Below are positions 1 to 15,004 of a stretch of DNA of 64,000 bases, piece after piece (position 1 is the first letter of the stretch; each line of letters begins with the position of its first letter). The position numbers and the translations under genes are program-made. Source of the stretch: a virus. The stretch spans positions 1 through 64,000 of the IMG/VR virus record IMGVR_UViG_3300047480_000598, one strand, 5' to 3'. The notes beneath the pieces were generated by a model. It did not search any database. It saw only the letters and a program-made list of their open reading frames with translations, and had not been told where the DNA came from.

Positions 1-2
1 GT

Positions 3-203
3 ATATACTTTGTTAACGGTGTACAAGCAACTAAACAACAAGTAGCATCGTATTGCACAGCAAGCGCAGCGCAAAAGCTACTACAAGATAACAGCATTGT
101 ACATAACGTAACACACGATGTACTGCATACTGTACATATACGCACTATAGCACTTGCTAACATTGTAAGTATAGCAGCTAATAAACAACAGCTTGTAGTG
201 TAA
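3..203 (+). CDS. 3' part of a hypothetical phage protein (5'-truncated by the window edge; not in ORF track)
   Basis: Open frame 3..203 = IYFVNGVQATKQQVASYCTASAAQKLLQDNSIVHNVTHDVLHTVHIRTIALANIVSIAANKQQLVV*, TAA at 201-203, followed by a terminator. Confidence 0.75.
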   Translation: MYFVNGVQATKQQVASYCTASAAQKLLQDNSIVHNVTHDVLHTVHIRTIALANIVSIAANKQQLVV

Positions 204-221
204 TAGCAACGCATTGTTGCA

Positions 222-254
222 AGCGCACAACTAAAAATTGTGCGCTATTTTTTT
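222..254 (+). terminator. Rho-independent terminator
   Basis: Stem AGCGCACAA (222-230)/TTGTGCGCT (238-246), then a T7 tract (248-254); a small GCAAC/GTTGC hairpin lies just upstream (206-220). Confidence 0.8.
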
Positions 255-256
255 AT

Positions 257-356
257 TATACACCCCGTCTTGCAGCAAAAAACCTAAGCAGCAGCGGTCG
301 GGAAGTACTTCGTATAGCACAGCAGCAGGTTTAAAAAACTACGGTCGGGGTATATA
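257..356. repeat. Nested dyad-symmetric element with internal direct repeats
   Basis: Palindrome GAAGTACTTC 302-311; AAACCT 280-285/AGGTTT 327-332; TATACACCCCG 257-267/CGGGGTATATA 346-356 (1 mismatch); all centred at 306-306.5. Direct repeats AGCAGCAG (287, 321) and CGGTCGGG (295, 342). Confidence 0.7.
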
Positions 357-389
357 TTTTAAATTGTTGCGCAAAAACAACAAACGCTG

Positions 390-580: not shown

Positions 581-588
581 TATAAATA
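581..588 (+). promoter_or_regulatory. T4-type late promoter TATAAATA
   Basis: Exact T4 gp55 consensus, 5 nt upstream of ATG 594, with no Shine-Dalgarno in between. Confidence 0.7.
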
Positions 589-593
589 CTGTT

Positions 594-1124
594 ATGAAAA
601 TTAATGAAATCATCTCAGAAGCTCACCATTCCATATATCAATCTATTGGCATTGGACATTGGATTGTAGATATTGACACACATTTTATAGTTACTCTTAC
701 TGATCGAAGTGATGTGCTCAATCCAAAGGAAGTTTTCAATATTATAACACATGCCTGTCTCTCAGAAGAATTACAAAAGATTCCTCGTGGCACAGGTGCA
801 TTTGTTCAAGACGTAGTTTCTAAAATTTCTGTTTATCTATACCGTTATAAGAACAAGCCCAACCGATTACGTTTAGAAACCGTTCTCACTCCAGATATGA
901 TTCCAAAGGATCCCATTATTCATATATATGTTATACCTGATGACTACACAATATCTGCCCGTGACGTTAAGCGGATGGATCGAGCAAGATCAACTGTTCG
1001 CTCTATGGGCAGGGACGCTATTAGCCAAGATCTCGAGCAGGATAAGAATATTATGCACACCATGTCACAAATGAGTCGTAACGAGCGTAGGGCATTTAAA
1101 AAGTTTCTTCAGCGTACCAAATAG
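594..1124 (+). CDS. Putative internal head protein with CTS-like N-terminus (MKINEIISE)
   Basis: ORF track 564..1124; start moved to ATG 594, behind the late promoter; N-terminal motif shared with neighbours. Confidence 0.7.
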   Translation: MKINEIISEAHHSIYQSIGIGHWIVDIDTHFIVTLTDRSDVLNPKEVFNIITHACLSEELQKIPRGTGAFVQDVVSKISVYLYRYKNKPNRLRLETVLTPDMIPKDPIIHIYVIPDDYTISARDVKRMDRARSTVRSMGRDAISQDLEQDKNIMHTMSQMSRNERRAFKKFLQRTK

Positions 1125-1555
1125 CCCATTTTACCGTCGGAACTTTGAGCAGATTTAGTTTTGAATCCTTGTTGTTTAAGTATTCTCACAAATCTGTTAT
1201 AAAGTTTCTGACGGTTCAATTCTTCTGCGGTAAACTTTAGGGTAGCATCTTTGTGTTGCTGTTTAAAGTTTCTCAGAATATCTATTACAGTAGCAAACAC
1301 AGTTTTTGACTCAGATCCAAATTTGCCCGTAATACCATAAGGGTCGTTTGATTCAGGGTCTTTAAACTCCACATCCCAAACGTCCATAAACTTAAGTTCA
1401 CCGTGTTCGTCATATATGGGGATGAGGAGGAAAGTCACTTCCATATCAATATTGTTAACTTCAAAGTGTGCGACCTTATGATCGTTAGCCTGGATGTGCC
1501 ATTGCCAAGGTGCGGGTCGATCTAAAAATTCTGTAATAAATTCTTGTGCTTTCAT
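1109..1555 (-). CDS. Putative internal head protein with CTS-like N-terminus (MKAQEFITE)
   Basis: 148-aa ORF; N-terminus close to the T4 IPII/IPIII CTS MKTYQEFIAE. Confidence 0.7.
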   Translation of the reverse strand: MKAQEFITEFLDRPAPWQWHIQANDHKVAHFEVNNIDMEVTFLLIPIYDEHGELKFMDVWDVEFKDPESNDPYGITGKFGSESKTVFATVIDILRNFKQQHKDATLKFTAEELNRQKLYNRFVRILKQQGFKTKSAQSSDGKMGYLVR

Positions 1556-1656
1556 AGTATTAATGTGGGTAGATAATCGATTATATAATCTGTGCTACCG
1601 TTTTTCCGCTTCGCGGTTTTTGTGTTCTTCTATATTTATTTTTGATAATTAAGTAT

Positions 1657-2388
1657 ATGTTATGGATATATGGAGATAGTTACTCGGCAAATTTTGTTCA
1701 TTTGAAATCCACCTGGTCGTGGGTTCGCCGAATTAATCAAAGATTAGCTTGTGAATCAAAAAATTTTAGTTTTGCTGGATCTGGGTTGGGATATACGTAT
1801 TGTAAGTTCAATGAAACGTGTGATCAGTTTTCCGAAGGGGATCATGTTATCATTACTCTTACAAGTTTAAACCGACGATATTTCTTTTATGATCAGCCTA
1901 TGTTAGTAAACTTGTGGAATTTGAAATATCCTTCTTACGATATGAACGGGGACAGGATTAAATTCAACCCGTCGGAAGCTGATGCATTTAGAAAGTATTT
2001 TATGTTTTTAGATAAGAATACAAAGTTAGAAGAAGTAAATCTCATTAACTTTTTGACTATGGTAGATAGTATTAGTCGAAGGAAAAAGTTGGGTAGTGTA
2101 ACTATTATGTCTTGTTTTGAAGATTCTTATCTAGTTGCTAAAACAGTAGCAATGGAAAATGCAATTGTAGCTAGCGGGTGGTTATATAAGATTAGTACAG
2201 AAGAGTGTGCTCGAGAAGAGTTAGTTAGTCAAATTCAAACAGATGATAAGCGTGCATGTCATCTAAGTCAGCATAATCATGGCATTCTTTTGTCTAAACT
2301 CTATAATTCAATAGTGAATAAAACTCCGTTAGACCTTACGCAGGGATTTAAGAAAGGATTCATTCATGAGGTATGTGATGTTAAATGA
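1657..2388 (+). CDS. SGNH/GDSL hydrolase-like protein
   Basis: WIYGDSY (block I), NFSFAGSG (block II), C-terminal DKRACH; start at ATG 1657 matches paralogue 15013 (MTLWVFGDS); TAATTA 5 nt upstream. Confidence 0.65.
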   Translation: MLWIYGDSYSANFVHLKSTWSWVRRINQRLACESKNFSFAGSGLGYTYCKFNETCDQFSEGDHVIITLTSLNRRYFFYDQPMLVNLWNLKYPSYDMNGDRIKFNPSEADAFRKYFMFLDKNTKLEEVNLINFLTMVDSISRRKKLGSVTIMSCFEDSYLVAKTVAMENAIVASGWLYKISTEECAREELVSQIQTDDKRACHLSQHNHGILLSKLYNSIVNKTPLDLTQGFKKGFIHEVCDVK

Positions 2389-2935
2389 AAGTAGCCCCGA
2401 TACACCTCTTGGTAGTATTAGTCCCGATTTAAACCTAAGTAAGTTATGGTTATGTAACATGCTTAAGAAGTTTGAATTGACGAAATTTGATAACATTTAT
2501 ATTCTAGGTTCTTGGTATGGATCGATGGGCCTATTCTTATTAACAAAGGGTATTGAGTTTGATGATGCATATAACATTGACTGGGATCATGAAAAGACCA
2601 CCAATGTAATGCATATGTTAAAGCGTATGAAGTTAAATGATTGTATTCATGCTGTTCGAGCCGATGCAAATGATATTGAATATAAAGGTGATTGTCTAGT
2701 GATCAATACTTCAACGAATGACATCGAAGGGCGAGATTGGTTTGATAATATACCTTCGGATACTCCTGTAGTATTGCAAGGTAAGAGTGATCAAGAAAAG
2801 TCTAATGGGGAAGATACTATGGAAAAGTTTAATCGTGCATATCCGTTGAGTCAAACTTTATTGTTAGATTTCTTAACGGTGGAAGATGTTAAGGGCAATC
2901 CATATTCTAGATTTATGAAGATAGGTTACAAATGA
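2366..2935 (+). CDS. Class I SAM-dependent methyltransferase-like protein
   Basis: IYILGSWYG (motif I-like), NIDWD acidic second strand, ADAN, LVINTS. Confidence 0.55.
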   Translation: MRYVMLNESSPDTPLGSISPDLNLSKLWLCNMLKKFELTKFDNIYILGSWYGSMGLFLLTKGIEFDDAYNIDWDHEKTTNVMHMLKRMKLNDCIHAVRADANDIEYKGDCLVINTSTNDIEGRDWFDNIPSDTPVVLQGKSDQEKSNGEDTMEKFNRAYPLSQTLLLDFLTVEDVKGNPYSRFMKIGYK

Positions 2936-2958
2936 TCTTGTAGCGGTAAATATAAATT

Positions 2959-3771
2959 ATGCGTATACATGAAATTATTAGCGAAGCGGATACAGACCCT
3001 AAATTAATTCAACGAATGAAAGACTTGTGGGATCAAGGATACAGTTCGAAAGAAATCAGCAATGCACTTGGTTGGACTAAGAGTCAAATAGGCCATAATT
3101 TGAATCGACATTATCATGATCGCGAAGGCAAAAGAAAACCCCACCCTCCTGAACTAATTGCAAGAGTCGGCGAGTTGTGGGACGAAATTCCAAGTCCCAC
3201 AAAGATAGCAAAAGAATTAGGAAAAACAGTTCAAGAAATTAATACTATTCTATATCTATATCATTCTGATAGGATAAACAAGTTCGATAATTCTCGTAGT
3301 TTAACTGATCAAGAAATTCAAGATATAATATCGAGTTATTCTCAAGGCGAGACTACTAATAGTATATCCAGGAAATATAAAGTGTCTCCAACCTTTATAC
3401 AAGACCTTATTATGAGAGAGATTGGTAAAGATGCATATGATGAGATAATGAATTCTCGTAGATTAGTTCCAGGAGCCTTTGTACCTAACAAGATGACAGA
3501 CGAGATGAAAGAAACAATTATTAAATTATTTGTCTCTGGTTATAATTTTACTGACATAAAGAAACAAATTAACGATGTGTTAGTAAGAAGTACAATTAGT
3601 AAATTTTTAAAGAATCATCCAAATTGGAACCAAATGCTACAGGCACATAAGTTAGCTAGAGATCAAAAGAAGCCTCAAGTAGCAACAACTAAACGAATGA
3701 CCAGTAAGCCAATGAGCAAAGGCATTAAAGCTATTCGTAAAATCGGCCCTGTCACCGGAGGTAAATTATAA
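2959..3771 (+). CDS. Tandem helix-turn-helix protein with CTS-like N-terminus (MRIHEIISE)
   Basis: Four HTH-like units (GYSSKEISNALG, SPTKIAKELGKT, GETTNSISRKYKVS, GYNFTDIKKQI); basic C-terminus; TAAATA at 2947-2952. Confidence 0.65.
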   Translation: MRIHEIISEADTDPKLIQRMKDLWDQGYSSKEISNALGWTKSQIGHNLNRHYHDREGKRKPHPPELIARVGELWDEIPSPTKIAKELGKTVQEINTILYLYHSDRINKFDNSRSLTDQEIQDIISSYSQGETTNSISRKYKVSPTFIQDLIMREIGKDAYDEIMNSRRLVPGAFVPNKMTDEMKETIIKLFVSGYNFTDIKKQINDVLVRSTISKFLKNHPNWNQMLQAHKLARDQKKPQVATTKRMTSKPMSKGIKAIRKIGPVTGGKL

Positions 3772-3772
3772 G

Positions 3773-4621
3773 ATGAGATATAGAGAATTTTTACTAGAAA
3801 GTAGTTATGATTCTATGATTGTCAGTCTTAAGAATCAATATCGTGGGTCGAAACAACGTGAATTTATTGATAATTGTGTCCTCTTTGCAAAAACTAAATT
3901 AAAGAAAGATGAGCGTGTTGTATGGTTTTTACGTATAGCAAGATCTATTTTATTTGATATTAAAAATAAAACTAATACTAGATTTGAGCTTATAGGGTAT
4001 AATACTGTTCCTACAAAATTTTTAACTTATACTGTACCTTATTTTGAAGACGAACTTAGAGTTGCAGAGCACATTAATCAAGGGAATGTTAAATTTGATA
4101 ATTATATATTTGGAAACAAATCGTTATCGACAGTAATACATGATTTCAACAATATATCCGAAGAGTGGAAAGTAAAAAAATCATTAAAAAAAGTCCCTAT
4201 TCAACCCGGTGATAAAAAACTTATTGATTTTGGAGATGGGAGTGCATGGTGGTTTTTAGATCGTGCGGCGTGTGAGAAAGAAGCCACTGCCGGAAGACAT
4301 TGCGGGAATCGACCAAATCAATGGAGATCTAATCACCGATTACTTAGTTATCGAGAAAATGGTCGAGTAAAAATGACTTTTGTACTAGAAACTGACACTG
4401 GTATGCTATTAGATCGACGTGCAGTTGCAAATCAACATCCAGATCCAAAGTATTATGAAAAAATCATAGCACTTTTAAAACTTCCGATTATAACCGATCT
4501 ACTTCCTAAAGACGTAAGAAACGATTTTCAATTGTCGAATTTATCTCCAGCACAACAACACCAGCTTCGTATTGAAAAGCCTAGTTTGTTCAAACAAACT
4601 GATAAATGGGAAGCTGACTAG
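3773..4621 (+). CDS. PcfJ-like domain protein with CTS-like N-terminus (MRYREFLLE)
   Basis: EATAGRHCG...LLSYRE...MTF...RAVANQHP resembles the PcfJ EG..M.HCV..SLR..T.E..G..N..P pattern. Confidence 0.55.
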   Translation: MRYREFLLESSYDSMIVSLKNQYRGSKQREFIDNCVLFAKTKLKKDERVVWFLRIARSILFDIKNKTNTRFELIGYNTVPTKFLTYTVPYFEDELRVAEHINQGNVKFDNYIFGNKSLSTVIHDFNNISEEWKVKKSLKKVPIQPGDKKLIDFGDGSAWWFLDRAACEKEATAGRHCGNRPNQWRSNHRLLSYRENGRVKMTFVLETDTGMLLDRRAVANQHPDPKYYEKIIALLKLPIITDLLPKDVRNDFQLSNLSPAQQHQLRIEKPSLFKQTDKWEAD

Positions 4622-4638
4622 CGTAAGAGAAATAAGAC

Positions 4639-5496
4639 ATGAGATTTAAAGAATTTTTAATAGAGGCCTCTATCTATAATCTGATCAAGGGACATCCGCA
4701 TCGTAATCATATATTGGACACTGGTATCGTAAAAGAACTCAGTCATCAAGCAGATTTCAAAGAAGCGCCATTAGAAGATCTAAGCGAGTTTCCCGAAAAG
4801 TATCCTTATGATGATGCAGAGTATTATATCTATGTTCTTGTGTTAGGTGATCAAGGATCGGCATTATTACGGTATGATCGATATTATGACGATCATTCAT
4901 TTCTTGTCTATGGTATACAAACAATGCCAAATGGGGAAGTCAAAACTCGCTATAGTGTAACCGAACTCTTTTATCCTTATAATATTGTACAATTTTTACA
5001 TGGATATACCGGGGAAAATTCTAAAATGTATATGGCTCTAAACCCCGGAAATCAAGTTCGAGAACGACTTCGTCGTTCAAGAGTACAAACAAGACAGGTC
5101 CCATCGTTCGGCGAGTCCCTTAGAATCATGTATAAACACATTTTACCGATTATATCCGATGAAGTTCCTAAAGCATTATTTCGTATGCAATCTCTATACA
5201 GACAAGCAATTGAACAATCTAATTATGCACTTGCAGAACAGATCTCTCAAAAAGGTACACAACTTGACGCATTTTTAAGAGTAAAAGATACAGGTATTCT
5301 CAGGGTAGAAATTCACCCGATAGTATCTGGTATTGCTAAAAGAGGATATAAGACATGGGCACTTAAACGACGGCCAGGTGTTGTACCGCCTATTGAGCGA
5401 TGGGCACATAATGCTTCATCAATGTCAAAGCCAGAATTTAACTCGTTTGTAGAAGCATTTAAAGAATACCTATTTAATACTGAACCGATGGATTGA
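4639..5496 (+). CDS. CTS-tagged protein (MRFKEFLIE), member of the local six-gene paralogue family
   Basis: LSHQADF, LVLGDQGSAL and ILPII..AIEQSNYALAE motifs shared with genes at 7990-13875. Confidence 0.65.
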   Translation: MRFKEFLIEASIYNLIKGHPHRNHILDTGIVKELSHQADFKEAPLEDLSEFPEKYPYDDAEYYIYVLVLGDQGSALLRYDRYYDDHSFLVYGIQTMPNGEVKTRYSVTELFYPYNIVQFLHGYTGENSKMYMALNPGNQVRERLRRSRVQTRQVPSFGESLRIMYKHILPIISDEVPKALFRMQSLYRQAIEQSNYALAEQISQKGTQLDAFLRVKDTGILRVEIHPIVSGIAKRGYKTWALKRRPGVVPPIERWAHNASSMSKPEFNSFVEAFKEYLFNTEPMD

Positions 5497-5498
5497 CT

Positions 5499-6452
5499 AT
5501 GAGAGCAAATGAATTCATAAGTGAAGCGTTAAACACATCACGATATTCGGCACAAGTAACTAATGCTATGCTTGATAGTCTTGCAGAAATTATTATCACC
5601 GATTATAACGAATCTAATCGAAGAAGAGAATTTAATTTTGATATACAAAATAGTTTTTTAGAAGCTGCCGAAGCCTCCTTAAATTCTACTAAGCGGTGGG
5701 GGAACAAAAAGGTTAGTCTAGCATTTAGTAATAACACCGAAGGGGCAAGATTTAATAGAGCCACTTATGAAATGACTGTGTCATCTGGTTTTGTAGATAT
5801 ACTAGTACAAAACATTGAAGAATTTTGTGAGTTGTATATAAAGGAAAGACAAATTCCATTAAAGATATCTAACATCAAACCAGGATTATACAATAGTCCT
5901 GTTCATGATACTGTTTCGTTCATTGTAGGGTTAATAATACATGAATTCACACACGGAGTACAACAAACTCTACAAAAAAACATATACCCAACCCACGGGT
6001 ATCTTGCACCAAGAGCTGACGACTATGATGCAGCAATGTCTAGAATCAATAAATTGCCTTTGGAAAAAGATCATAAAATTTATGCTAGTAGTCCGGACGA
6101 AATCGGTGGTCATGCCGCGCAAGCAGCCGGTCGAATAATTTCGTTAATGGCTCATATGCCAAAAGAAGAACAAATTAAGAAATTACAAAAATTACTTAGC
6201 AACCCTAAAGAGTTTGTTTCTATAGTAGCTCGTGGTGTTAAAGATACTGCGTTTAATGTATTAAGATTTAATCAATCGCATAGAAAGGAAAAATATGTAT
6301 TTGATCAATATTTAAAACGATGTTATGAGTTACTTCTTGATTATTTAAAATATATTCAAGGTCGTAATGTTAATCCTACGATCGATGATAAAGTTAATGC
6401 TAACTATGAAAAATGGTTAAAATCTCAAAAAGGGCCGGGAAACAAAAAATGA
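5499..6452 (+). CDS. Zincin-like metallopeptidase domain protein with CTS-like N-terminus (MRANEFISE)
   Basis: IIHEFTHGVQ (HExxH) plus downstream YASSPDEIGGHA third-ligand motif; start moved from 5493 to ATG 5499. Confidence 0.65.
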   Translation: MRANEFISEALNTSRYSAQVTNAMLDSLAEIIITDYNESNRRREFNFDIQNSFLEAAEASLNSTKRWGNKKVSLAFSNNTEGARFNRATYEMTVSSGFVDILVQNIEEFCELYIKERQIPLKISNIKPGLYNSPVHDTVSFIVGLIIHEFTHGVQQTLQKNIYPTHGYLAPRADDYDAAMSRINKLPLEKDHKIYASSPDEIGGHAAQAAGRIISLMAHMPKEEQIKKLQKLLSNPKEFVSIVARGVKDTAFNVLRFNQSHRKEKYVFDQYLKRCYELLLDYLKYIQGRNVNPTIDDKVNANYEKWLKSQKGPGNKK

Positions 6453-7669
6453 GATATAGAGAATTTTTACTAGAAGCCAAACCTGACAATTTAGGTGATG
6501 GATTAATCAAAAAAATTGGGCAAGCATATTTTCGAAAAGTAAGAGTTATGCCCAATGCTGAATCTACCGATCCTGTTGCAGTTGATCAAGCAGTATTACA
6601 AACAGGATATAGTTTAGCAGATAGCATGTATAATCATGTCGGACCTAAGAATCTAATATGGGTTGCAAAACAATTTGTACAAGATCCTCACTTTATGCCC
6701 GAAGATTTTCCTGCGTGGGCTGATACATTAGGTGAATATACTTCGGCAGTCGATGCCCGTAAACCTATTGAAAGAGATCTTAACAAGTTTGCAAACATTA
6801 ATCAATTAAGGACAGAAATTCGCAAGTATCAAGATGAAGCTGTAGGAGAAGTTTACGACATTATTGTTCCTGTATTAGACAAGTTTGTTCAACAAGGTCA
6901 AGCAGCATGGTTATATAAAGGAAAAGACTATGCTATCTATCGTCCCGACACTTGGCAAGCCAGTAATGAGTTTTATCGAGTATTAAACAACAAGGGAATC
7001 AACACAAGTTTGTGTGTAACATACAGTGAAGATATGTATAAACAGTATACTAAGCGTGGCGTATTTGTTTTAATCATTGCACCGGATACGGCTTACATCT
7101 CTTATATTAGTACTGGAGATACTAACGGCCATTATGCTGCAACTTCGGAGTTTTCGGATATGTACAATGATCATCAACATGGATTAGAAGAACAAATTAA
7201 GATGTTCCCGAGACTTAAACCGATCCTAGCCGACTATGCAAAAGAGAGTAATGATGTCGAAGTATTAATCTATCTAAATCCTGCATTAGCAAAGAAGAAG
7301 TATCCAGAGATGATGAATCTTGTAGAGAAATATAATATACGACTTATTAGCCCTGAATCTGATGTAGCAGTCGAGCATGGTGACCCCGAATACTTAGATG
7401 TTGATCAAGCAGAAAATTTTGTGAAAGTTATGAATGATCCGAAGAACTCTAAAGAAGTTAACAGACTAAAAAACCTAAAAGAATATGGGTTACGTGCTTT
7501 AGGTATCTCAAAGACTGAAAAATCAATCTTCGGAACTCCGCTTATATTATGCCAGATTCCTGGCTCTAGTTTTGGTTTTGGAGACAGGGATAACTTTGAA
7601 CTATTTCCAGCCGAATTCCTGTGGTCAGACATACATGAAGATTACTTGATTAATATTCTAGCTTTTTGA
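6449..7669 (+). CDS. CTS-tagged protein (MRYREFLLE), related to the 13880 protein
   Basis: ATGA overlap with the upstream stop at 6449-6452; YAIYRP..AS...TSLCVT..MYKQYTKRGVFVLI aligns with YKIFIV..AA...AIWCTG..HFIHYTSKAMVFVV. Confidence 0.65.
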   Translation: MRYREFLLEAKPDNLGDGLIKKIGQAYFRKVRVMPNAESTDPVAVDQAVLQTGYSLADSMYNHVGPKNLIWVAKQFVQDPHFMPEDFPAWADTLGEYTSAVDARKPIERDLNKFANINQLRTEIRKYQDEAVGEVYDIIVPVLDKFVQQGQAAWLYKGKDYAIYRPDTWQASNEFYRVLNNKGINTSLCVTYSEDMYKQYTKRGVFVLIIAPDTAYISYISTGDTNGHYAATSEFSDMYNDHQHGLEEQIKMFPRLKPILADYAKESNDVEVLIYLNPALAKKKYPEMMNLVEKYNIRLISPESDVAVEHGDPEYLDVDQAENFVKVMNDPKNSKEVNRLKNLKEYGLRALGISKTEKSIFGTPLILCQIPGSSFGFGDRDNFELFPAEFLWSDIHEDYLINILAF

Positions 7670-7912
7670 TTGTTGAAATTTAGTAAATCGTCCCTTCTCA
7701 CCACGTACTTGAGGACCAATCGGTTGACGACCTTGTTTAGCTTGACTAATAGCAATGTCTGTGCCGTTATTAAAGCTATTGCTCGGTGTAGATTGTTTAC
7801 GTCCAGTATTATGTTTTCGTTCCCATTCCCATCCGGCTTTATGCCCCGAACAGTCTTTTGTACATTGGCGCCCAAAGAAACTTAACTCGGTAATAATTTC
7901 TATAATTTTCAT
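7658..7912 (-). CDS. Small CTS-tagged protein (MKIIEIITE) with CTKDCSGHxAG motif
   Basis: 84-aa ORF; TAAATA (7918-7923, minus strand) 5 nt upstream; C-terminal RGEKGRF. Confidence 0.65.
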   Translation of the reverse strand: MKIIEIITELSFFGRQCTKDCSGHKAGWEWERKHNTGRKQSTPSNSFNNGTDIAISQAKQGRQPIGPQVRGEKGRFTKFQQSKS

Positions 7913-7989
7913 TATAATATTTATGTGTTCTTAAAGTTAAATGTAAAATAAAAAGAGAATAAATATACAATAACCATTTGGACAAAAAT

Positions 7990-10260
7990 ATGCCAACTAA
8001 ACCTACAGATACAAGAACAAATGCATTCCCAGAATTAGATGATTTTGACGGAATTCTAAAACCAAAGAAAGTAAACCCTTTATCAAAAGTTGAACCAGAA
8101 CCAGAACGTCATAGTCGTTCTAAAGCAGGTGACCCGGACTTAAGAAGAGCTTCTGCTGCTGATACAAGAGCAGCAACATCTGGAATTAATATTTCAGCAG
8201 GTGGAAGAGATAGATTACATCAAATGCCAGATCTTGGTCCTGACGAAATTGACGATGAAGAAGCGGCAAGACGAGCTGGATTAAGGCATGGCGGAGGACT
8301 TGAACCTCGTGAACCGGGTACTGACTTAGTGCAGCCGCGAGATTTAGCGAATGCTGCTCAAAATGCAGTTCAAGTTCAAGGTATGCAAAATCCTAAGTGG
8401 CATGCTATAAGACATTTGCCTGCATACTTAGCTAGTCAAGTTCGTAAGATGGGACGGGGAACATTTGGATTAATAACAGATACTCCTATTGAAGATATTA
8501 TTACTATTGCAAATTTAGGCGGACAAGGCCCAAACACTATAGAAGAAGTTAATGCAGTAGCAGGATGGATAATAGCCAACGGAGAGTTTGTTCGTAATGT
8601 TGATTTTGATTTTAGTCAAGTTATGCCCGATTACGAACCGTTAGTACGAGAATTTCGTGTTGGCGGTATACGATTCCACCTTGTACAAGATGATCGAGGA
8701 AATCCGGACGACTTTGACCCAAACGATCCAAGCAAGAAGGGAACATACGTTTATGCTTATCCTGAGCAAGATGCCAAGGAACCAGAATCGTTAGTAGTTA
8801 CTGATATTGGTCTTCCGGGACCCCCCGGCGGTATGCGTAGATTACCGAGATTTGAAGGTGAATCTTTAGCAAACGAAATGAGAAGAACTATTCAATTATT
8901 AGAATCGTCATATAGTAGTCCTTACGATATATTTAAAATGCAACAACCACAGGATAATAAAAAGGAGAGTAAAGTGGCCAGTTTATCGGATGAAATTAGA
9001 AAGAACATTCAATTATTAGAATCATTAGAAGAAGATATCGAAGGTTCGAAAGAAATTGATCAACTAATGGAAGAATTAGTTGCATTAGAAGCATATCGTG
9101 GAAAAGCGTCGAAGGCACGATATATGGACCCAGAAGCTCAAAAGAAGCGTATGGCTCGTCATTCGACATTAGCACCTTTAATATCAAAAGATCCTGGCGG
9201 ACCTCGATTAATTAGTTGGTTGCATAAGCAGTTAGGACTATCGGCGGAAGCTGACTGGGGCAGAGATCAGGCAGTTCGTTACAATGCAGCAACAATGCCG
9301 CATATGCCTAAGCAATCAGACAAAGAAATTTCTACTAGGTGGGGTTCCGGTGTATGGAGTGACAAAGTTAGAGATTCTCGTCAGTTATGGAGTATCATTA
9401 AGAGCTCTCCGGATAATTTCATCGTTTTTGTTGGAGAAAAAGGTGTAGGTGCAGTTCGTCCGAAGCCTGGTTATATCGAATCCATGAGAAAGTCCAAGGA
9501 CAACTATGAACCGGCGGCCGATAGAAACTTACCTTACATTTATGCGTTCTTTACAGCTGATCAGCAATGGTATAATAACAGCTCCGATGATGCTGGGGTA
9601 TTTGATCCGGACACCGGAAAGATTGCAACTAGAGGAGGATTATTCCATGGAGGAGATCAAAATTTTAATATAGTCGATGCTGTTACATCAATGATCGGTA
9701 AACTTAAACGAGCATATGCTGCATATCCTGCACCGGCTGATTATCCTCATCCTGAAGATCTAGAGTACGACGACGAAGGAAATCCGATCCCACGTTCGAA
9801 AGATAGACCATCGGTTGAAAGAGAAAAGATTGCTCAAAGAGCAGCATCAAGAGCAACCCCGGCAAATACTCGTAGTAAACATCAATTAGAAAGTGATGTA
9901 TTTGAAAAAATTAAACCTGTTATGTCTAAACTTTGCAAAAATGCTGTAGGAATGGTTAATCGAAAGGCACAGAGAGCAGTTAACGGCGGTAACTGGGACG
10001 AGGCCCAAAGAGTGGCTAGAGTAGGTAACACGCTTAACACAATTATTGCTGCACTTGACAATCCGCAAGAACCAGGTGTGCCTTATCAACTAAGTGAGAA
10101 ATATAGAAGCGCATTGCAATATGCTGCATCGGAACACGGAGTCAATATCAGAGATGATCAAGATTACAAAGACTTCTTATTGTCTGCATTAACCGCCGGT
10201 CCCGAAACTAAGTCGATCCTTGATGCGGTACGTTCGGTATTAGTCGGTGTACAACTTTAA
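7990..10260 (+). CDS. Large multidomain putative head protein; C-terminal half belongs to the local paralogue family
   Basis: ORF track 7978..10260 (TTG start); ATG 7990 more likely; TAAATA 7960-7965; internal repeats EMRRTIQLLES / EIRKNIQLLES. Confidence 0.7.
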   Translation: MPTKPTDTRTNAFPELDDFDGILKPKKVNPLSKVEPEPERHSRSKAGDPDLRRASAADTRAATSGINISAGGRDRLHQMPDLGPDEIDDEEAARRAGLRHGGGLEPREPGTDLVQPRDLANAAQNAVQVQGMQNPKWHAIRHLPAYLASQVRKMGRGTFGLITDTPIEDIITIANLGGQGPNTIEEVNAVAGWIIANGEFVRNVDFDFSQVMPDYEPLVREFRVGGIRFHLVQDDRGNPDDFDPNDPSKKGTYVYAYPEQDAKEPESLVVTDIGLPGPPGGMRRLPRFEGESLANEMRRTIQLLESSYSSPYDIFKMQQPQDNKKESKVASLSDEIRKNIQLLESLEEDIEGSKEIDQLMEELVALEAYRGKASKARYMDPEAQKKRMARHSTLAPLISKDPGGPRLISWLHKQLGLSAEADWGRDQAVRYNAATMPHMPKQSDKEISTRWGSGVWSDKVRDSRQLWSIIKSSPDNFIVFVGEKGVGAVRPKPGYIESMRKSKDNYEPAADRNLPYIYAFFTADQQWYNNSSDDAGVFDPDTGKIATRGGLFHGGDQNFNIVDAVTSMIGKLKRAYAAYPAPADYPHPEDLEYDDEGNPIPRSKDRPSVEREKIAQRAASRATPANTRSKHQLESDVFEKIKPVMSKLCKNAVGMVNRKAQRAVNGGNWDEAQRVARVGNTLNTIIAALDNPQEPGVPYQLSEKYRSALQYAASEHGVNIRDDQDYKDFLLSALTAGPETKSILDAVRSVLVGVQL

Positions 10261-10290
10261 TATTAATTGGTGTAGACCTTTAGTATAAGT

Positions 10291-11175
10291 ATGTCACTTG
10301 CGGCTGAGAGAATTAGAGAACTATTAAACGCGATCGAACTCTCTCAGCCGCATCTTCTACTCGAAGAGACGGATTACAACATCTTAAAAAATGCTGTTGG
10401 TGGAAAAGAATTGTTTAAGTTCTTACGACAGAAAAATTTAACTAATCATTTAGGTGATTTTCAAGAAGCAGAGACTGGTCCTAATGGGTATCCTTCGATA
10501 TACCAGTTTGGGATTGCTGTAGGGGATAGCGGATGTGCATTTCTTGAATATGTCGGTGTTACTTATAGTCAATACAAAACAAATATATGGGTCCGAAATA
10601 ACAATGGGGAATTAGAACATAACGTTAAAAATGCTAATGCATTTGCTGTAAAAGAGCTTGTAGGACCAAATACAAAATTCTTTACAACTGGAATGTTTAG
10701 TACTGGAAAAGGCGAAGATGATCGTTTAAAATCTCGCAATTTAACACGGGTTAGAAATTACTCTAAAAACGAAAACTTGAATTATAACTTTAAACATATT
10801 ATATTTTATAACCTAATTCCAGTTTTAGTTCCTATACTTAAAAAATCTTTGTTAGATTCTCGGGATACTCTAAAAGATGCATTTGCTCGAGGTGATTACG
10901 CAGCAGCTGAGTCTTTAAGTAAACAATTAAATGATATCAATTCGGCAATAGTTGATTTGGGTCCCACAGAAAGAATTACACTTGGAGTGATGCCTCACAC
11001 TTTTATTCGAAATTTAGTTTTTGATGCTATCGAACAAACTTTTAACAGAATAGACAGCTCACACCCTGGAAAAGAAGCTAGAAGAATCGAATGGGGTGTA
11101 GCTGTAGCAAAGGGAGATAAGAAAGGCCTAGCGCAAATCATTCGAACTATTAAACAAAAGTTACATGTGAGATAA
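10291..11175 (+). CDS. Paralogue-family putative head/ejected protein
   Basis: N-term ERIRELLNAIE; GGKELFKFLR, AVGDSGCAF, LIPVL..DAFARGDYAAAE. Confidence 0.7.
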   Translation: MSLAAERIRELLNAIELSQPHLLLEETDYNILKNAVGGKELFKFLRQKNLTNHLGDFQEAETGPNGYPSIYQFGIAVGDSGCAFLEYVGVTYSQYKTNIWVRNNNGELEHNVKNANAFAVKELVGPNTKFFTTGMFSTGKGEDDRLKSRNLTRVRNYSKNENLNYNFKHIIFYNLIPVLVPILKKSLLDSRDTLKDAFARGDYAAAESLSKQLNDINSAIVDLGPTERITLGVMPHTFIRNLVFDAIEQTFNRIDSSHPGKEARRIEWGVAVAKGDKKGLAQIIRTIKQKLHVR

Positions 11176-11177
11176 AA

Positions 11178-12050
11178 ATGTCTACAGAACAAATTCGATC
11201 GTTATTAAACATACTGACAGAAGAACAAGATACTAAAATATTGAAGGGTGTAATCGGTGGGAAACAACTAGTACGATATCTTCGTCAAAGTGGTGTGTTT
11301 ACTCACTTAGCAGACTTTGTCGAAACTCCGTACGATATTAATCAAGCATATTATTCTCAAACAATCGTAGTCGGCGAACATGGCTGTGCATTTATGACCG
11401 GAAAGTCGACCGGAAGAATAGGTGATCTGCCTGACTGGAGTATTAAAGTATTTTATGATTCTGGATATGGGACTGCCCTCTTTAGCGTCGAAGGATTTCC
11501 TTACGGTATGGAGGAAAAAATCGGTCCAATTCGAAAGATGTATGTAAATGTAGAACCTGAAAAAAGTCAGCCTCGAAAATTTCCTAGAAAAGTAAATCGA
11601 AATCAAGAATTACAAGATCAGTATAGATTTGTTAGACACGAATTTGTGACAAGGATGTTTGAAAGACTAGTACCAGTTATGATTCCAGTAATTAAGCAAT
11701 CAGTAAATTCAATCAAACCAGCAATGAGTGATGCAGTTAATAACGGTGACTATGATCGATTAGAAATATTATCTAGAAGAGCAAACGTTCTAGATTATGT
11801 AATTGCCGGAATTAACCAATCAGAAAACGAATTATCTCCGCAACTCGAAGCTATTCTCAGTCAAATTATTATTCGTGTTTATTCTTTAACTACTGGGACA
11901 GAAGTCGACGATTACGATGATGTACGAGGTAGAACTATGATAGGTTCAACATACGACTATGTTGAATGGGCGTATACAACATATCGAGACAACAAATACC
12001 TCCCACAATTTGTTAAAGCATTTAAAGATTACTTGGCAGGAAAGATATAA
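11178..12050 (+). CDS. Paralogue-family putative head/ejected protein
   Basis: MSTEQIRSLLNILTE; GGKQLVRYLR, VVGEHGCAF, LVPVM..DAVNNGDYDRLE. Confidence 0.7.
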   Translation: MSTEQIRSLLNILTEEQDTKILKGVIGGKQLVRYLRQSGVFTHLADFVETPYDINQAYYSQTIVVGEHGCAFMTGKSTGRIGDLPDWSIKVFYDSGYGTALFSVEGFPYGMEEKIGPIRKMYVNVEPEKSQPRKFPRKVNRNQELQDQYRFVRHEFVTRMFERLVPVMIPVIKQSVNSIKPAMSDAVNNGDYDRLEILSRRANVLDYVIAGINQSENELSPQLEAILSQIIIRVYSLTTGTEVDDYDDVRGRTMIGSTYDYVEWAYTTYRDNKYLPQFVKAFKDYLAGKI

Positions 12051-12910
12051 TGAGCACTGAACAAATTAGATCACTATTAAATTTATTAAACGAATCGATA
12101 TTAGTCGAAGATAATATAAGTCAAATTTTGAATAGTGCCCCTTCTGGAGAATCTCTTAAGAAATATCTTTTAGGACGTATAATGTCTCACAAATCTAATT
12201 TTGAAAAAGGCACATTGTCGAGTATTATGAAAAGTAGAACTAAATTTTCTAAAGATAATAATGCAATAATAATCGGAACACAAGGGTGTGCATACAAACC
12301 AGCCGACGATGACGATTTTACTGACGGGGGAGCAGTACATATGTTTTCACCTTATGCTACTAGTCGCAGCAGGCCATATCTCGGATCGTATATGGTTATC
12401 AGTGGTAGGGTTGCAGATTTAAAACAAGTAATCGGTGATATAAAGGCAGTATATGTTGCAACAAATTTAATCGCTAAGGAAAAATCGGATGAGCAACGAT
12501 TTAGCAGATTCAAAGATCATTACAGTTACGTGCATACAATTAATAAAACAATATTACCGGTAATAGTTTCATATGAGCATCAGGTAATTAACAATTTAAA
12601 GAATAAAATTCATGATTTGTTTCGTGACGGAAAATATGAAGAAGCAGAACGAGTATCTAAATTTGCAAATTATGTTGTAAGATTATACACAGATTTTAAA
12701 AATCCTAATTCTGGAGCAGCATTTCGTTTTATGGAAACTGTCTTAAAAAATTTACTTATGAATCGTAGTATGGATTCTACCGGAGATTTTCAGGGGTTTA
12801 TAGATCAAGAAAAATTATCAAATTTTGTGATGGATGTTGCAACCGGAAGCACGACAAATCGATTAAAAGTGATACGATTCATTAAAAATTATTTGTCCGG
12901 AAATCAATAA
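12050..12910 (+). CDS. Paralogue-family putative head/ejected protein
   Basis: MSTEQIRSLLNLLNE; IIGTQGCAY, ILPVI..DLFRDGKYEEAE; TAATG stop/start coupling. Confidence 0.7.
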   Translation: MSTEQIRSLLNLLNESILVEDNISQILNSAPSGESLKKYLLGRIMSHKSNFEKGTLSSIMKSRTKFSKDNNAIIIGTQGCAYKPADDDDFTDGGAVHMFSPYATSRSRPYLGSYMVISGRVADLKQVIGDIKAVYVATNLIAKEKSDEQRFSRFKDHYSYVHTINKTILPVIVSYEHQVINNLKNKIHDLFRDGKYEEAERVSKFANYVVRLYTDFKNPNSGAAFRFMETVLKNLLMNRSMDSTGDFQGFIDQEKLSNFVMDVATGSTTNRLKVIRFIKNYLSGNQ

Positions 12911-13875
12911 TGAGTACGCAAGATTTTCGACATTTAATCAATCTTCTAACGGAATCGGCTGAACAGTTAAACGAAGCGCGGGCAACATCTATCTTAAAAA
13001 TTAACGAAAGTCGAAAAATTCTCTTAGAAGATCAACTCGGTCGAGTGTTAAGTAAAGAAGTCGGCGGCGATCAACTAATGAATATGTTAAGGTCTTTTCG
13101 AATAGTGTATAATGATGCAAAATTTGAAGAAGTTCCTTATAGTACATTACTCGACGATGATTTTTTTAAGCAACCGATGCAAGCAGTTGTCGTTGGGACA
13201 ACAGGTTGTGCTGTAGTACGTCCCGGAGGCCCGGGCCCATTTTTAAAGTATTTTGTTCGAGGCTATGAGAAAAAAGCAAAACTAAATCCGGAATATTTTA
13301 CAGCTAATCAACCTGGTCAGATGCTACACTTTATCGGCAATATTAAAAACTGTTATTTGATTCGTAATCCAAGACCGCAGACACAAGGATTAGAAATAAG
13401 AAGACAAAATAGAGCAAGTGAATATAAAAACGAAGAAACTTTAATGGATCAAATCTTTAAACGAATTCGTCCGATATTAGCACCAATCATTAAAAAATCT
13501 TTCTTAGAAGTGCAACGCTTGTACAAAGATGCTATCAATAATGGAGACTATCAGACCGCAGAGATGTACGGTAGTGCTGCTTCTAAATCAAATACTTTAC
13601 TTGCTATTTTATCAAAAGATGATTTAACATCTCTCCCAGGGCACGATGGCGGAGTTAATTATAGTCGTAAATTTGTCGAGATAGTTCGAAATGCATTTAC
13701 TGATATGTATAAAAAATATCCTCCTTATGATTTATATGGTGGCCCGGAGGATACTGCTGAAGATGTAGAAGCTATGAAACTTTATTCGAACTTTTTAAGT
13801 AATGCAGCAGATAATACCGGTAAAGAGGTTAAATACATTATTGATAGATTTAGAGAATATTGCTTAACAGGATAA
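12910..13875 (+). CDS. Paralogue-family putative head/ejected protein
   Basis: MSTQDFRHLINLLTE; GGDQLMNMLR, VVGTTGCAV, IRPIL..DAINNGDYQTAE. Confidence 0.7.
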   Translation: MSTQDFRHLINLLTESAEQLNEARATSILKINESRKILLEDQLGRVLSKEVGGDQLMNMLRSFRIVYNDAKFEEVPYSTLLDDDFFKQPMQAVVVGTTGCAVVRPGGPGPFLKYFVRGYEKKAKLNPEYFTANQPGQMLHFIGNIKNCYLIRNPRPQTQGLEIRRQNRASEYKNEETLMDQIFKRIRPILAPIIKKSFLEVQRLYKDAINNGDYQTAEMYGSAASKSNTLLAILSKDDLTSLPGHDGGVNYSRKFVEIVRNAFTDMYKKYPPYDLYGGPEDTAEDVEAMKLYSNFLSNAADNTGKEVKYIIDRFREYCLTG

Positions 13876-13879
13876 TTAA

Positions 13880-15004
13880 ATGTTTTTACGTGAATTACTT
13901 TATAGAACAAAAAGAAGGCTTTTAAACGAAGCATTATCAAAAGGATCTCAAACTGTACTTACTCACAAAAGTAAAGCTAATTTGTTTCCAGCAATCGGAG
14001 ATGCATTAAGAGACGATGCAATGCACACTCCTCAATACTTTTTTGGACAAGCTGCGGCAGTTAAAAAAATGACCGACGAACAAGCAGTTACTTGGTTCCT
14101 TGAAAAATTAGATGCCATGGAAGAAGCAGGATACAACGGAGTTAGAACGTCAACTGACGGTAAGTTTAATTTGTGGGTTGCAACATCATATGCAAATGGT
14201 CGCGATACTTGGGAAGATATTAAAGGTAAGTTACAGCCAATAATGTATAAATTTAAAGTATTAAAAGATGCAAACCCATCTCCTCTTCGCCCAGAACATT
14301 CAAGTATAACAAATTTTTCCAGCATACGAGAAGCTGCTCTTTATATAACAACACATTACGGAAATGTACTCGACGAGTTACTGAAAAGAAAGGAGACATC
14401 TGTTGCTGAAAAGTTTAACAATAAATTTGCTAGGGCATTCGAACTAGTAGACAATGAAGATTACAAAATTTTTATCGTTTTAAATCGATGTGCTGCAATG
14501 AAATTAGCTAGAGGTGCAATATGGTGTACAGGAATGTTACATACTGATGATCATTTTATTCACTATACTAGTAAGGCAATGGTATTTGTTGTCCTCCCAA
14601 AAGATGCTCAACATGTCGACAAGGCGAAAGGAGGAAGACAAATTCAGGGACCAGAAAAATATCAGTTTGATGCCGGCGGTCCCTACTTTATGGATATTGC
14701 CGACGACATGCAATCTAGAGATTTTGTAAAAAACAGATTTCCTTATCTATATAAAGATGTAGTCGGTGCATTACAAGAAAATAAAGAAGATTTAACCGAC
14801 ATTATGATCAACTTATCTCAAGACGAAAAATTGTTAATGGACGATCGATCAAAAACATTGAAATACGATGTAGACAATGAAATTCAAAAATTGAGAGTCT
14901 TTATTGACCGAGGATATATGTCCGAAGTCGAACGGCCGCCGGCTCCTGAAGTAGATCCTAATGCAGCACCTGAAGCAGGAGCACAACCTCCGCAAATTCA
15001 ATAA
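13880..15004 (+). CDS. Putative head protein with WCT-motif domain (MFLRELL...LLNE)
   Basis: 374-aa ORF; GAIWCTG..F..Y..EKYQF motif; Pro/Ala-rich tail. Confidence 0.65.
   Translation: MFLRELLYRTKRRLLNEALSKGSQTVLTHKSKANLFPAIGDALRDDAMHTPQYFFGQAAAVKKMTDEQAVTWFLEKLDAMEEAGYNGVRTSTDGKFNLWVATSYANGRDTWEDIKGKLQPIMYKFKVLKDANPSPLRPEHSSITNFSSIREAALYITTHYGNVLDELLKRKETSVAEKFNNKFARAFELVDNEDYKIFIVLNRCAAMKLARGAIWCTGMLHTDDHFIHYTSKAMVFVVLPKDAQHVDKAKGGRQIQGPEKYQFDAGGPYFMDIADDMQSRDFVKNRFPYLYKDVVGALQENKEDLTDIMINLSQDEKLLMDDRSKTLKYDVDNEIQKLRVFIDRGYMSEVERPPAPEVDPNAAPEAGAQPPQIQ

Follow-up and report, generated by a model that had tools for sequence, protein, structure and literature searches.

A C-run/G-run hairpin at the edge of a dinucleotide-purged zone in an uncultured myophage: a candidate element of transcription punctuation

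We analysed a 100-nucleotide (nt) element at positions 257-356 of the window, that is, of the 64,000 nt that form the first 64 kb of the virus record IMGVR_UViG_3300047480_000598 of IMG/VR. The element lies in the spacer (204-593) between a gene nearly free of the dinucleotides GA, GG, TC and CC, referred to below as forbidden dinucleotides, and the first gene of ordinary composition. It is best read as the last hairpin of an intergenic family of C-run/G-run hairpins with long loops that punctuates a purged zone of early genes, and the element itself is best read as part of an ordinary terminator-promoter junction of a phage, not as a DNA end, a packaging site or an injection-stop site. On the sequence evidence, we would put about equal weight for and against the more specific proposal that it is a device of transcription punctuation, in which a hairpin following a terminator overlaps a sigma-70-like promoter box at a recombination junction, in the manner of the promoter-early stem-loops (PeSLs) of T4-type phages.

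The contig of this record measures 162,335 bp and is classed as 'linear' with a completeness of 44%, so that the genome should be of about 370 kb. Its proteins include a contractile tail sheath, a T4-type large terminase and a DnaB-like helicase, and the phage is a member of a clade of uncultured myophages with genomes of about 370 kb. The closest cultured phage by terminase is the Pseudomonas jumbo phage PA5oct (54% identity). About 20 related loci were gathered for comparison; G000 is the contig of the window, and L004, L034 and L038 stand for G001, G005 and G006, respectively.

Anatomy, chance level and conservation of the dyad

The sequence-only reading had described three nearly co-centred dyads with interleaved direct repeats, and all of these repeats were present with correct coordinates and sequences. 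The central palindrome occupies 10 nt (302-311), and the outer arms (257-267 and 346-356) are complementary at 10 of 11 positions, the single mismatch being C.A on the + strand, which would become G.U on the - strand. The inner 6-nt arms (280-285 and 327-332) have an axis offset by half a base from that of the other two dyads. One pair of 8-nt direct repeats starts at 287 and 321, and the other at 295 and 342. The element was also rightly described as non-coding, the sole open reading frame (ORF) across 257-356 being a 69-aa TTG frame without support, and as preceded by a terminator, which we find as a terminator-like hairpin at 222-246 followed by a T-run. This intrinsic terminator of the purged gene (222-255, + strand) has a 9-bp stem and a 7-nt loop, and a like hairpin with a T-run follows the gene in most relatives.

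The score obtained by the three dyads on the same axis was equalled at 41 of the 162,335 axes of the contig and by 43 of 1000 dinucleotide-preserving shuffles of the spacer, and when a shift of the axis by one base was permitted, 177 of 1000 shuffles equalled it. The claim that the dyads are co-centred beyond chance thus holds only moderately to marginally. The outer arm pair was better supported, since the best partner of the G-run arm in the window outscored those of all 500 shuffles, with p values of 0.01 in L008 and 0.004 in L022 for the same comparison. Folding of the element as single-stranded DNA gave a result at the level of shuffles (z = 0.04), which makes extrusion unlikely and leaves the proposed extrudable or cruciform boundary unsupported.

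Comparison with the relatives that have a homologous junction showed that most of them share one order of features: a terminator, a variable segment, a G-rich box with a TATA-type hexamer, a small hairpin 5 nt farther on, a C/T- or T-rich tract, and a block matching 455-545 of the window. The dyad interior (257-340) is the part of the spacer with the lowest identity to relatives (24-65%), while the G-box segment (341-400) reaches 70-97% identity in near relatives. The inner arms and the central palindrome, which lie with the interleaved direct repeats at 280-332 (no strand assigned), are absent from relatives. The right, G-run arm (341-358, + strand), in which the conserved G-rich box is followed by a TATA-type hexamer that a promoter-like match designates as a candidate -10 box, is kept in most relatives with a homologous junction. 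The G-rich box is present in the window, L008, L009, L012, L013, L022, L006, L017 and L037, and related G-rich boxes are present in L007, L018, L015, L029 and L036.

The left, C-run arm (257-267, + strand) recurs in L008 and L022 and is degenerate in L012 and L013. As a partner of the G-run arm, a C-run was significant in the window and G001, in L008 and in L022 (p <= 0.01 each) and marginal in L012 and L006 (about 0.07), and the loop between the two arms ranged from 4 to 91 nt across relatives. Between L006 and the window, two positions are changed on both arms with the pairing preserved. Of the conservation and covariation of arms that the sequence-only reading had proposed to look for, conservation was found for the G-run arm and, in some lineages, for the outer pairing, and was not found for the inner arms or the spacing.

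The nested appearance of the element and its interleaved direct repeats arise from a dispersed motif of 15-20 nt, which the element contains once in direct and twice in inverted orientation. In the nearest relatives, non-coding DNA upstream of the purged gene holds 5 copies of the motif in L008 and 2 copies in L009. Variants of this motif make up the left arm and the central palindrome, the centre being an inverted copy, and a minus-strand copy lies at 308; the nested inner symmetry of the dyad is incidental. These motif copies, the shuffle and axis counts and the unconserved interior would suit a dyad without function, in which case it would be a by-product of three motif copies in an A/T-rich spacer of low complexity, and only the G-rich box would be functional. 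We regard this as unlikely, although the left arm is gone in L017, L018 and L037 with the G-box retained, because the outer pairing is significant in three lineages, because two double changes between L006 and the window preserve pairs, and because hairpins of the same type in G006 have arms that differ between copies and are complementary within each copy, in a zone from which GG and CC are otherwise barred.

In L008, the nearest relative, a stretch of about 1 kb upstream of the purged gene (406-1400) has no called gene. Direct copies of the dispersed motif crowd this stretch together with other repeats, and it is a candidate non-coding RNA region. The terminal repeat of PA5oct includes two abundant non-coding RNAs (PMC7318152).

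The dinucleotide purge, its exempt hairpins and the edge block

Counts of forbidden dinucleotides along the window were 4 in 1-256, 17 in 257-356, 0 in 357-386 and 24 in 387-486. Almost all of the 17 in the element fall within its repeat arms, and the first dense forbidden dinucleotides appear from 391. The element had been placed exactly at the composition boundary; this boundary is real but lies about 35-40 nt to the right. Given the position of the forbidden dinucleotides in the arms and their absence from 357-386, the element is a C-run/G-run island inside the purged zone, not a divider. It is nevertheless the last feature before the purged composition stops, as had been claimed in substance, and this association is conserved in relatives.

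The purge is clade-wide and covers several genes (window 1-386; L006 714-1319; L007 3481-4750; L017 2529-3606; L018 1039-2127; L038 4000-12630). GG, TC and CC are missing altogether from the gene of about 200 aa in five relatives, where its 600-750 nt hold only 1-3 GA, and all four forbidden dinucleotides are absent from a neighbouring gene of 119-126 aa. Codon junctions are also clean, with 0-1 of about 200 forbidden. The proteins of the purged zone are without Gly, Pro and Trp, and Glu or Asp is nil or nearly nil. The purge is symmetric across both strands, so that the constraint looks to act at the level of DNA or on two strands.

The purged zone of G006 is about 8.6 kb long and contains intergenic hairpins of the form X-CCCC...GGGG-X', each located after a terminator and with a loop of 21-79 nt. 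A scan of their arms identified four such hairpins, in each of which 9-10 of 10 arm positions pair; a further copy, the fifth, is shifted and lies at 11943. The outer arms differ from one copy to another, yet are complementary within each. Over the 4.1 kb from 8,500 to 12,630 of G006, we counted 99 forbidden dinucleotides against about 731 expected, and 76 of the 99 sit in C-runs or G-runs of at least 3; the runs of at least 4 recur as C-run/G-run groups. It is to this family that the 257-356 element is best assigned. The stretches from terminator to hairpin at 8720-8790 and 10190-10260 of L038 are nearly identical between cassettes, which suggests that the purged zone grew by duplication of units made of a gene and its spacer.

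The right border of the purged zone is marked by a conserved block (455-545, + strand) whose motifs are unique within the 162-kb contig. A strict regular expression found one copy of the block per locus at 9 of 9 loci, and at all nine the fraction of forbidden dinucleotides rose from 0.002-0.057 upstream of the block to 0.13-0.24 downstream. The block still marks the edge in G006 and L037, though other purged genes intervene there between the gene of about 200 aa and the block. The first ordinary gene probably has its promoter and leader here, although the block is kept even in L006, where no + strand gene follows. The junction module as a whole is conserved across phages whose proteins of about 200 aa are only about 50-60% identical.

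The striking part of the locus is thus its surroundings, in which several well-folded protein genes are nearly free of GA, GG, TC and CC on both strands. We confirm this purge and extend it to the clade. The value of the element is that of a landmark: four dinucleotides are purged from real coding genes throughout the clade, most of the exceptions sit in hairpin arms, and a conserved block marks the exact end of the purge. Purged genes, exempt hairpins and edge module form a unit for studying the purge, which can be compared over about 20 related loci.

Transcription punctuation and its alternatives

As a device of transcription punctuation, the hairpin would attenuate or cap RNA reading through the intrinsic terminator of the last purged gene. 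Its 3' arm, the conserved G-rich box with the TATA-type hexamer, would overlap a sigma-70-type promoter, from which transcription would restart toward the genes of ordinary composition. The conserved flanks may act as linkers for recombination and for swaps of downstream genes between related phages.

The promoter-like match of the window (330-358) scored 9 of 12 (TTTAAA, 17 nt, TATATT), a level that shuffles also attain. It is made of a weak -35-like hexamer (330-335) and a -10-like hexamer (353-358), which the G-run arm (346-356) abuts or overlaps. A C-run/G-run stem-loop is likewise located at promoter boxes in L008, L022 and L006. The homologous place reads as a perfect promoter in L015 (12 of 12, TTGACA-18-TATAAT) and as a terminator-like hairpin in L006, and the upstream promoter of L008 likewise has a small hairpin 5 nt past its -10-like hexamer. 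The features of an intrinsic terminator were found at 222-255 and in the L006 copy of the G-box hairpin, while the dyad of the window has a 78-nt interior and just four T after it. PA5oct uses the host RNA polymerase, with promoters of the form TTGAC/TATAATA (PMC7318152).

PeSLs have been described by Arbiol et al. (2010) and Comeau et al. (2014) in the T4-type phages RB49/phi1, T4/PST and KVP40/nt-1. They are sigma-70 promoters whose -35 and -10 boxes are overlapped or separated by stem-loops 'generally involving GGGG...CCCC', and these stem-loops act both as terminators of upstream transcription and as linkers for recombination (PMC2839356, PMC4122927). Like them, the element is intergenic, lies past the stop codon of an early gene, has a C-run/G-run stem-loop overlapping a sigma-70-like box and borders a hypervariable gene region. 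It also lies at a mosaic junction, where the identity between G000 and G001 falls from 100% to about 70% at the conserved flanks, although an assembly chimera could account for this fall. The identity is 100% over 1-496, 41-52% in the next two segments and 65-77% in the shared genes, and the gene content downstream differs. The switch falls on an 8-nt box (489-496) that all relatives conserve. Either the phages recombined recently at a conserved linker, or co-occurring strains were joined in a chimeric assembly.

The element also differs from PeSLs. The loops of the element are long and variable (4-91 nt), its -35 box is weak, and, instead of forming a compact cassette of about 100 bp that ends in a ribosome site and a start codon, it is followed by a C/T tract and a second block; for this last reason we call it PeSL-like and not a member of the PeSLs. 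It is present as a single copy in the 162 kb of this phage, multiple copies being found only in the purged zones of relatives; the 162-kb fragment is without the early region, and G006 has at least five hairpins of the C-run/G-run type in 4 kb. The surroundings free of GA, GG, TC and CC are without counterpart in these two published descriptions of PeSLs (PMC2839356, PMC4122927).

Several observations weigh against punctuation of this kind. The -35 hexamer is weak in the window and its placement relative to the G-box varies among relatives, and in G006, L018 and L037 a better promoter is located upstream of the G-box, so that the box would sit in the transcript and not in the promoter. The G-box motif has one intergenic copy in the 162-kb contig, compared with about 50 PeSLs per genome. 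The right arm ends 238 nt before the next start codon (594), with a second promoter-like block in between. The hairpins of G006 are not followed by a T-run and are therefore not canonical terminators. The C-run partner is absent in L017, L018, L007 and L037, which makes the pairing of the arms dispensable. Finally, the fold of the + strand RNA is unremarkable (z from -1.4 to -1.9) and that of the - strand RNA is better (z from -3.6 to -4.3).

The RNase III processing hairpins of phage T7 are long and imperfect, contain internal loops and recur among its early genes. The C-run/G-run hairpins share these traits and recur after genes of an early-type region, and they might accordingly be signals of RNA processing or stability between early genes, perhaps targets of a factor that the purge avoids. 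The C-runs and G-runs hold most of the forbidden dinucleotides of the purged zone, which argues for strong selection for exactly these runs, and the missing T-runs of the G006 copies would agree with such a role. The likeness to the T7 sites is drawn from general knowledge, however, and differs in that each hairpin is located here after an intrinsic terminator, so that little RNA should reach it, and in that the + strand fold of the window copy is no better than those of shuffles. We therefore hold processing to be rather improbable.

Somewhat less probable still, in our view, is that the hairpins are the designated recognition or processing sites of a factor whose off-target action the purge avoids, a possibility suggested by the fact that GG and CC are tolerated almost nowhere else in this zone of several kilobases and several genes. 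Such a factor could be a nuclease, an RNase, a deaminase or a host defence with GR/YC specificity. If this were true, the last hairpin and the edge block would form the border of a specially protected segment that is expressed first and perhaps enters first or lies in a terminal repeat.

The sequence-only reading had favoured a boundary at the level of DNA. A long-terminal-repeat edge, an injection-stop site, a pac or cos site and a replication origin are, even when taken jointly, improbable explanations of the element. An origin of the R-loop type would find here a promoter, a G-rich box on the non-template strand, a T-rich unwinding tract and iteron-like repeats. DnaA boxes (TTWTNCACA) number 8 in the 64 kb, against 9.7 expected, and none is located in 1-600. 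The cumulative GC skew of G006 dips to a small local minimum at the boundary, which is not convincing. Elsewhere the skew tracks gene direction, and the contig of the window begins at the site and has no left flank. Variable tandem repeats of 11-26 nt adjoin the junction module, which has no second copy in the contig and is shared by distant phages, but the spacing and the interior of the dyad are not conserved. Breaks in or close to the purged gene occur in contigs of several samples, whereas many contigs of relatives run straight through, and the ends of left-side contigs are scattered inside tandem repeats in an artefact-like manner. A precedent for early genes in such a position exists in PA5oct, whose terminal repeat of 39 kb is rich in early genes (PMC7318152). 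The terminase of the present phage is T4-like. A dyad recognised by terminase or protelomerase, as had been suggested, is not supported by a loop that varies from 4 to 91 nt, by a partner arm missing in three lineages and by a DNA fold at chance level (z = 0.04).

The injection-stop signal of phage T5 had been one of the models for the proposed boundary. The iss region of T5 extends over about 1.2-1.7 kb within a known terminal repeat (bioRxiv 10.1101/866236, Davison), and it has the same order of repeats in all relatives and eight paired DnaA boxes (bioRxiv 10.1101/866236). The present spacer resembles it in being non-coding, in having direct and inverted repeats, in lying beside early genes and in being conserved next to poorly conserved coding DNA. 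It differs in its length of 390 nt, a quarter of the size of the T5 region, in its unconserved dyad interior and in having no DnaA boxes, and no terminal repeat is known here. An injection-stop role is thus unsupported.

It is very improbable that the hairpin acts in a minus-strand RNA, for example one antisense to the purged gene and transcribed from a mirror-image TATAAT by the left arm: this RNA folds at -33.6 kcal/mol (z = -4.3, bettered or equalled by no shuffle), the outer-arm mismatch turns into G.U and the TATAAT adjoins the left arm on the minus strand of the window and L008, but the preference for this strand is not shared by L006 and L012, which fold better on the + strand, L009 has no minus-strand TATAAT, and the open frames antisense to the gene are not conserved, with lengths of 89 to 193 out of about 200 codons.

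The purged gene, the contig start and features downstream of the hairpin

Positions 3-203 (+ strand) were identified as the 3' end of the purged gene from homologues, codon-position bias, fold and the scarcity of forbidden dinucleotides. Frame +3 of this stretch encodes the last 66 residues of a protein of about 196 aa, for whose family 23 homologues were found that are 62-97% identical across all 66 residues. Differences among ten copies of the gene numbered 3932 at the third codon position, against 2132 and 1864 at the other positions. An AlphaFold2 (AF2) model of the family is an alpha/beta structure with a predicted local distance difference test score (pLDDT) of 84 and a predicted TM-score (pTM) of 0.76. 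The protein belongs to no Pfam family and no PHROGs family, and a Foldseek search of the model against PDB gave no match at E <= 0.001. VIA-align gave only a weak likeness to Sm/WYL-like barrels (Z <= 5.3, under the noise level stated by that tool). With its homologues, its dominant third-position changes and its confident fold, the purged stretch 1-203 is ordinary coding DNA and not the special terminal stretch that had been imagined. An antisense, Cys-rich frame of 71 aa (2-214) was rejected as a gene, because the length of the antisense open frame in relatives is anywhere between 89 and 193 codons.

A DNA search of cultured phages and exact-pattern scans of metagenome contigs gave no match, and pattern scans of viral contigs matched only G001. 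The neighbouring 186-aa protein gave no match as a query, and a scan of genome contigs for the protein of about 196 aa found no relative, hence no clue to the host. Rfam found nothing meaningful in the window or in the loci of 9 relatives, and no tRNAs were found.

The start of the window is an assembly break and not a genome end. G001 begins at the same base as the contig of the window, and the homologous site is crossed without a break by the contigs of at least 10 relatives. Left-side contigs have the whole gene, and their ends vary within a tract of tandem repeats 217-273 nt past the stop codon; since they end at differing points inside these repeats, they look like assembly artefacts. A hairpin telomere at the palindromic first 8 bases was rejected by reasoning, as a palindrome left by an assembler would be about k-1 bases long and relatives have more of the gene to the left. 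Six right-hand contigs from different samples break within the purged gene of about 200 aa or a short way upstream: G000, G001 and L034 have the break at base 1, and L012, L006 and L036 start 0.1-0.7 kb upstream of the gene. Near-identical intergenic cassettes of the purged zone, as in G006, would explain these shared breaks, and a coverage step at the edge of a terminal repeat is the alternative.

Downstream of the G-run arm, a small hairpin or inverted repeat (364-383, + strand) with 6-bp arms and an 8-nt spacer begins 5 nt past the -10-like hexamer, and is a candidate leader hairpin or operator. L006, L017 and L022 retain its stem around other loops, and a different palindrome occupies the same place in L007 and L018. 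The C/T-rich tract that follows (387-450, + strand), where ordinary dinucleotide content begins, has T-runs about every 10-11 nt in the window, in which Tandem Repeats Finder (TRF) found no tandem array. It is a variable tandem repeat in relatives, with perfect or near-perfect units of 11 nt in 4.6 copies in L006 (1521-1571), 12 nt in 10 copies in L007 (4891-5010) and 26 nt in 3 copies in L018 (2317-2389). Several Logan and JGI contigs terminate inside this tract.

An 8-nt GGTATATA box was considered as a repeated phage promoter and was rejected, since it has 12 copies in 162 kb, mostly within genes.

The first gene of ordinary composition is an ORF at 594-1124 (+ strand), which starts an array of hypervariable genes that extends over about 14 kb in the window (594-15004) and over about 4 kb in G001 (L004 563-4564). 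L006 is without the array, and its DUF6934 and DnaB-like genes come almost directly. A TATAAATA box, the T4 late promoter consensus, precedes the first ordinary gene at a distance of 5-7 nt from its start codon (window 581-596; L038 12750-12770). A Shine-Dalgarno sequence is absent before this gene in the window and in G006, and the sequence would allow a leaderless mRNA, or one with a very short leader, as a possible transcript of this gene.

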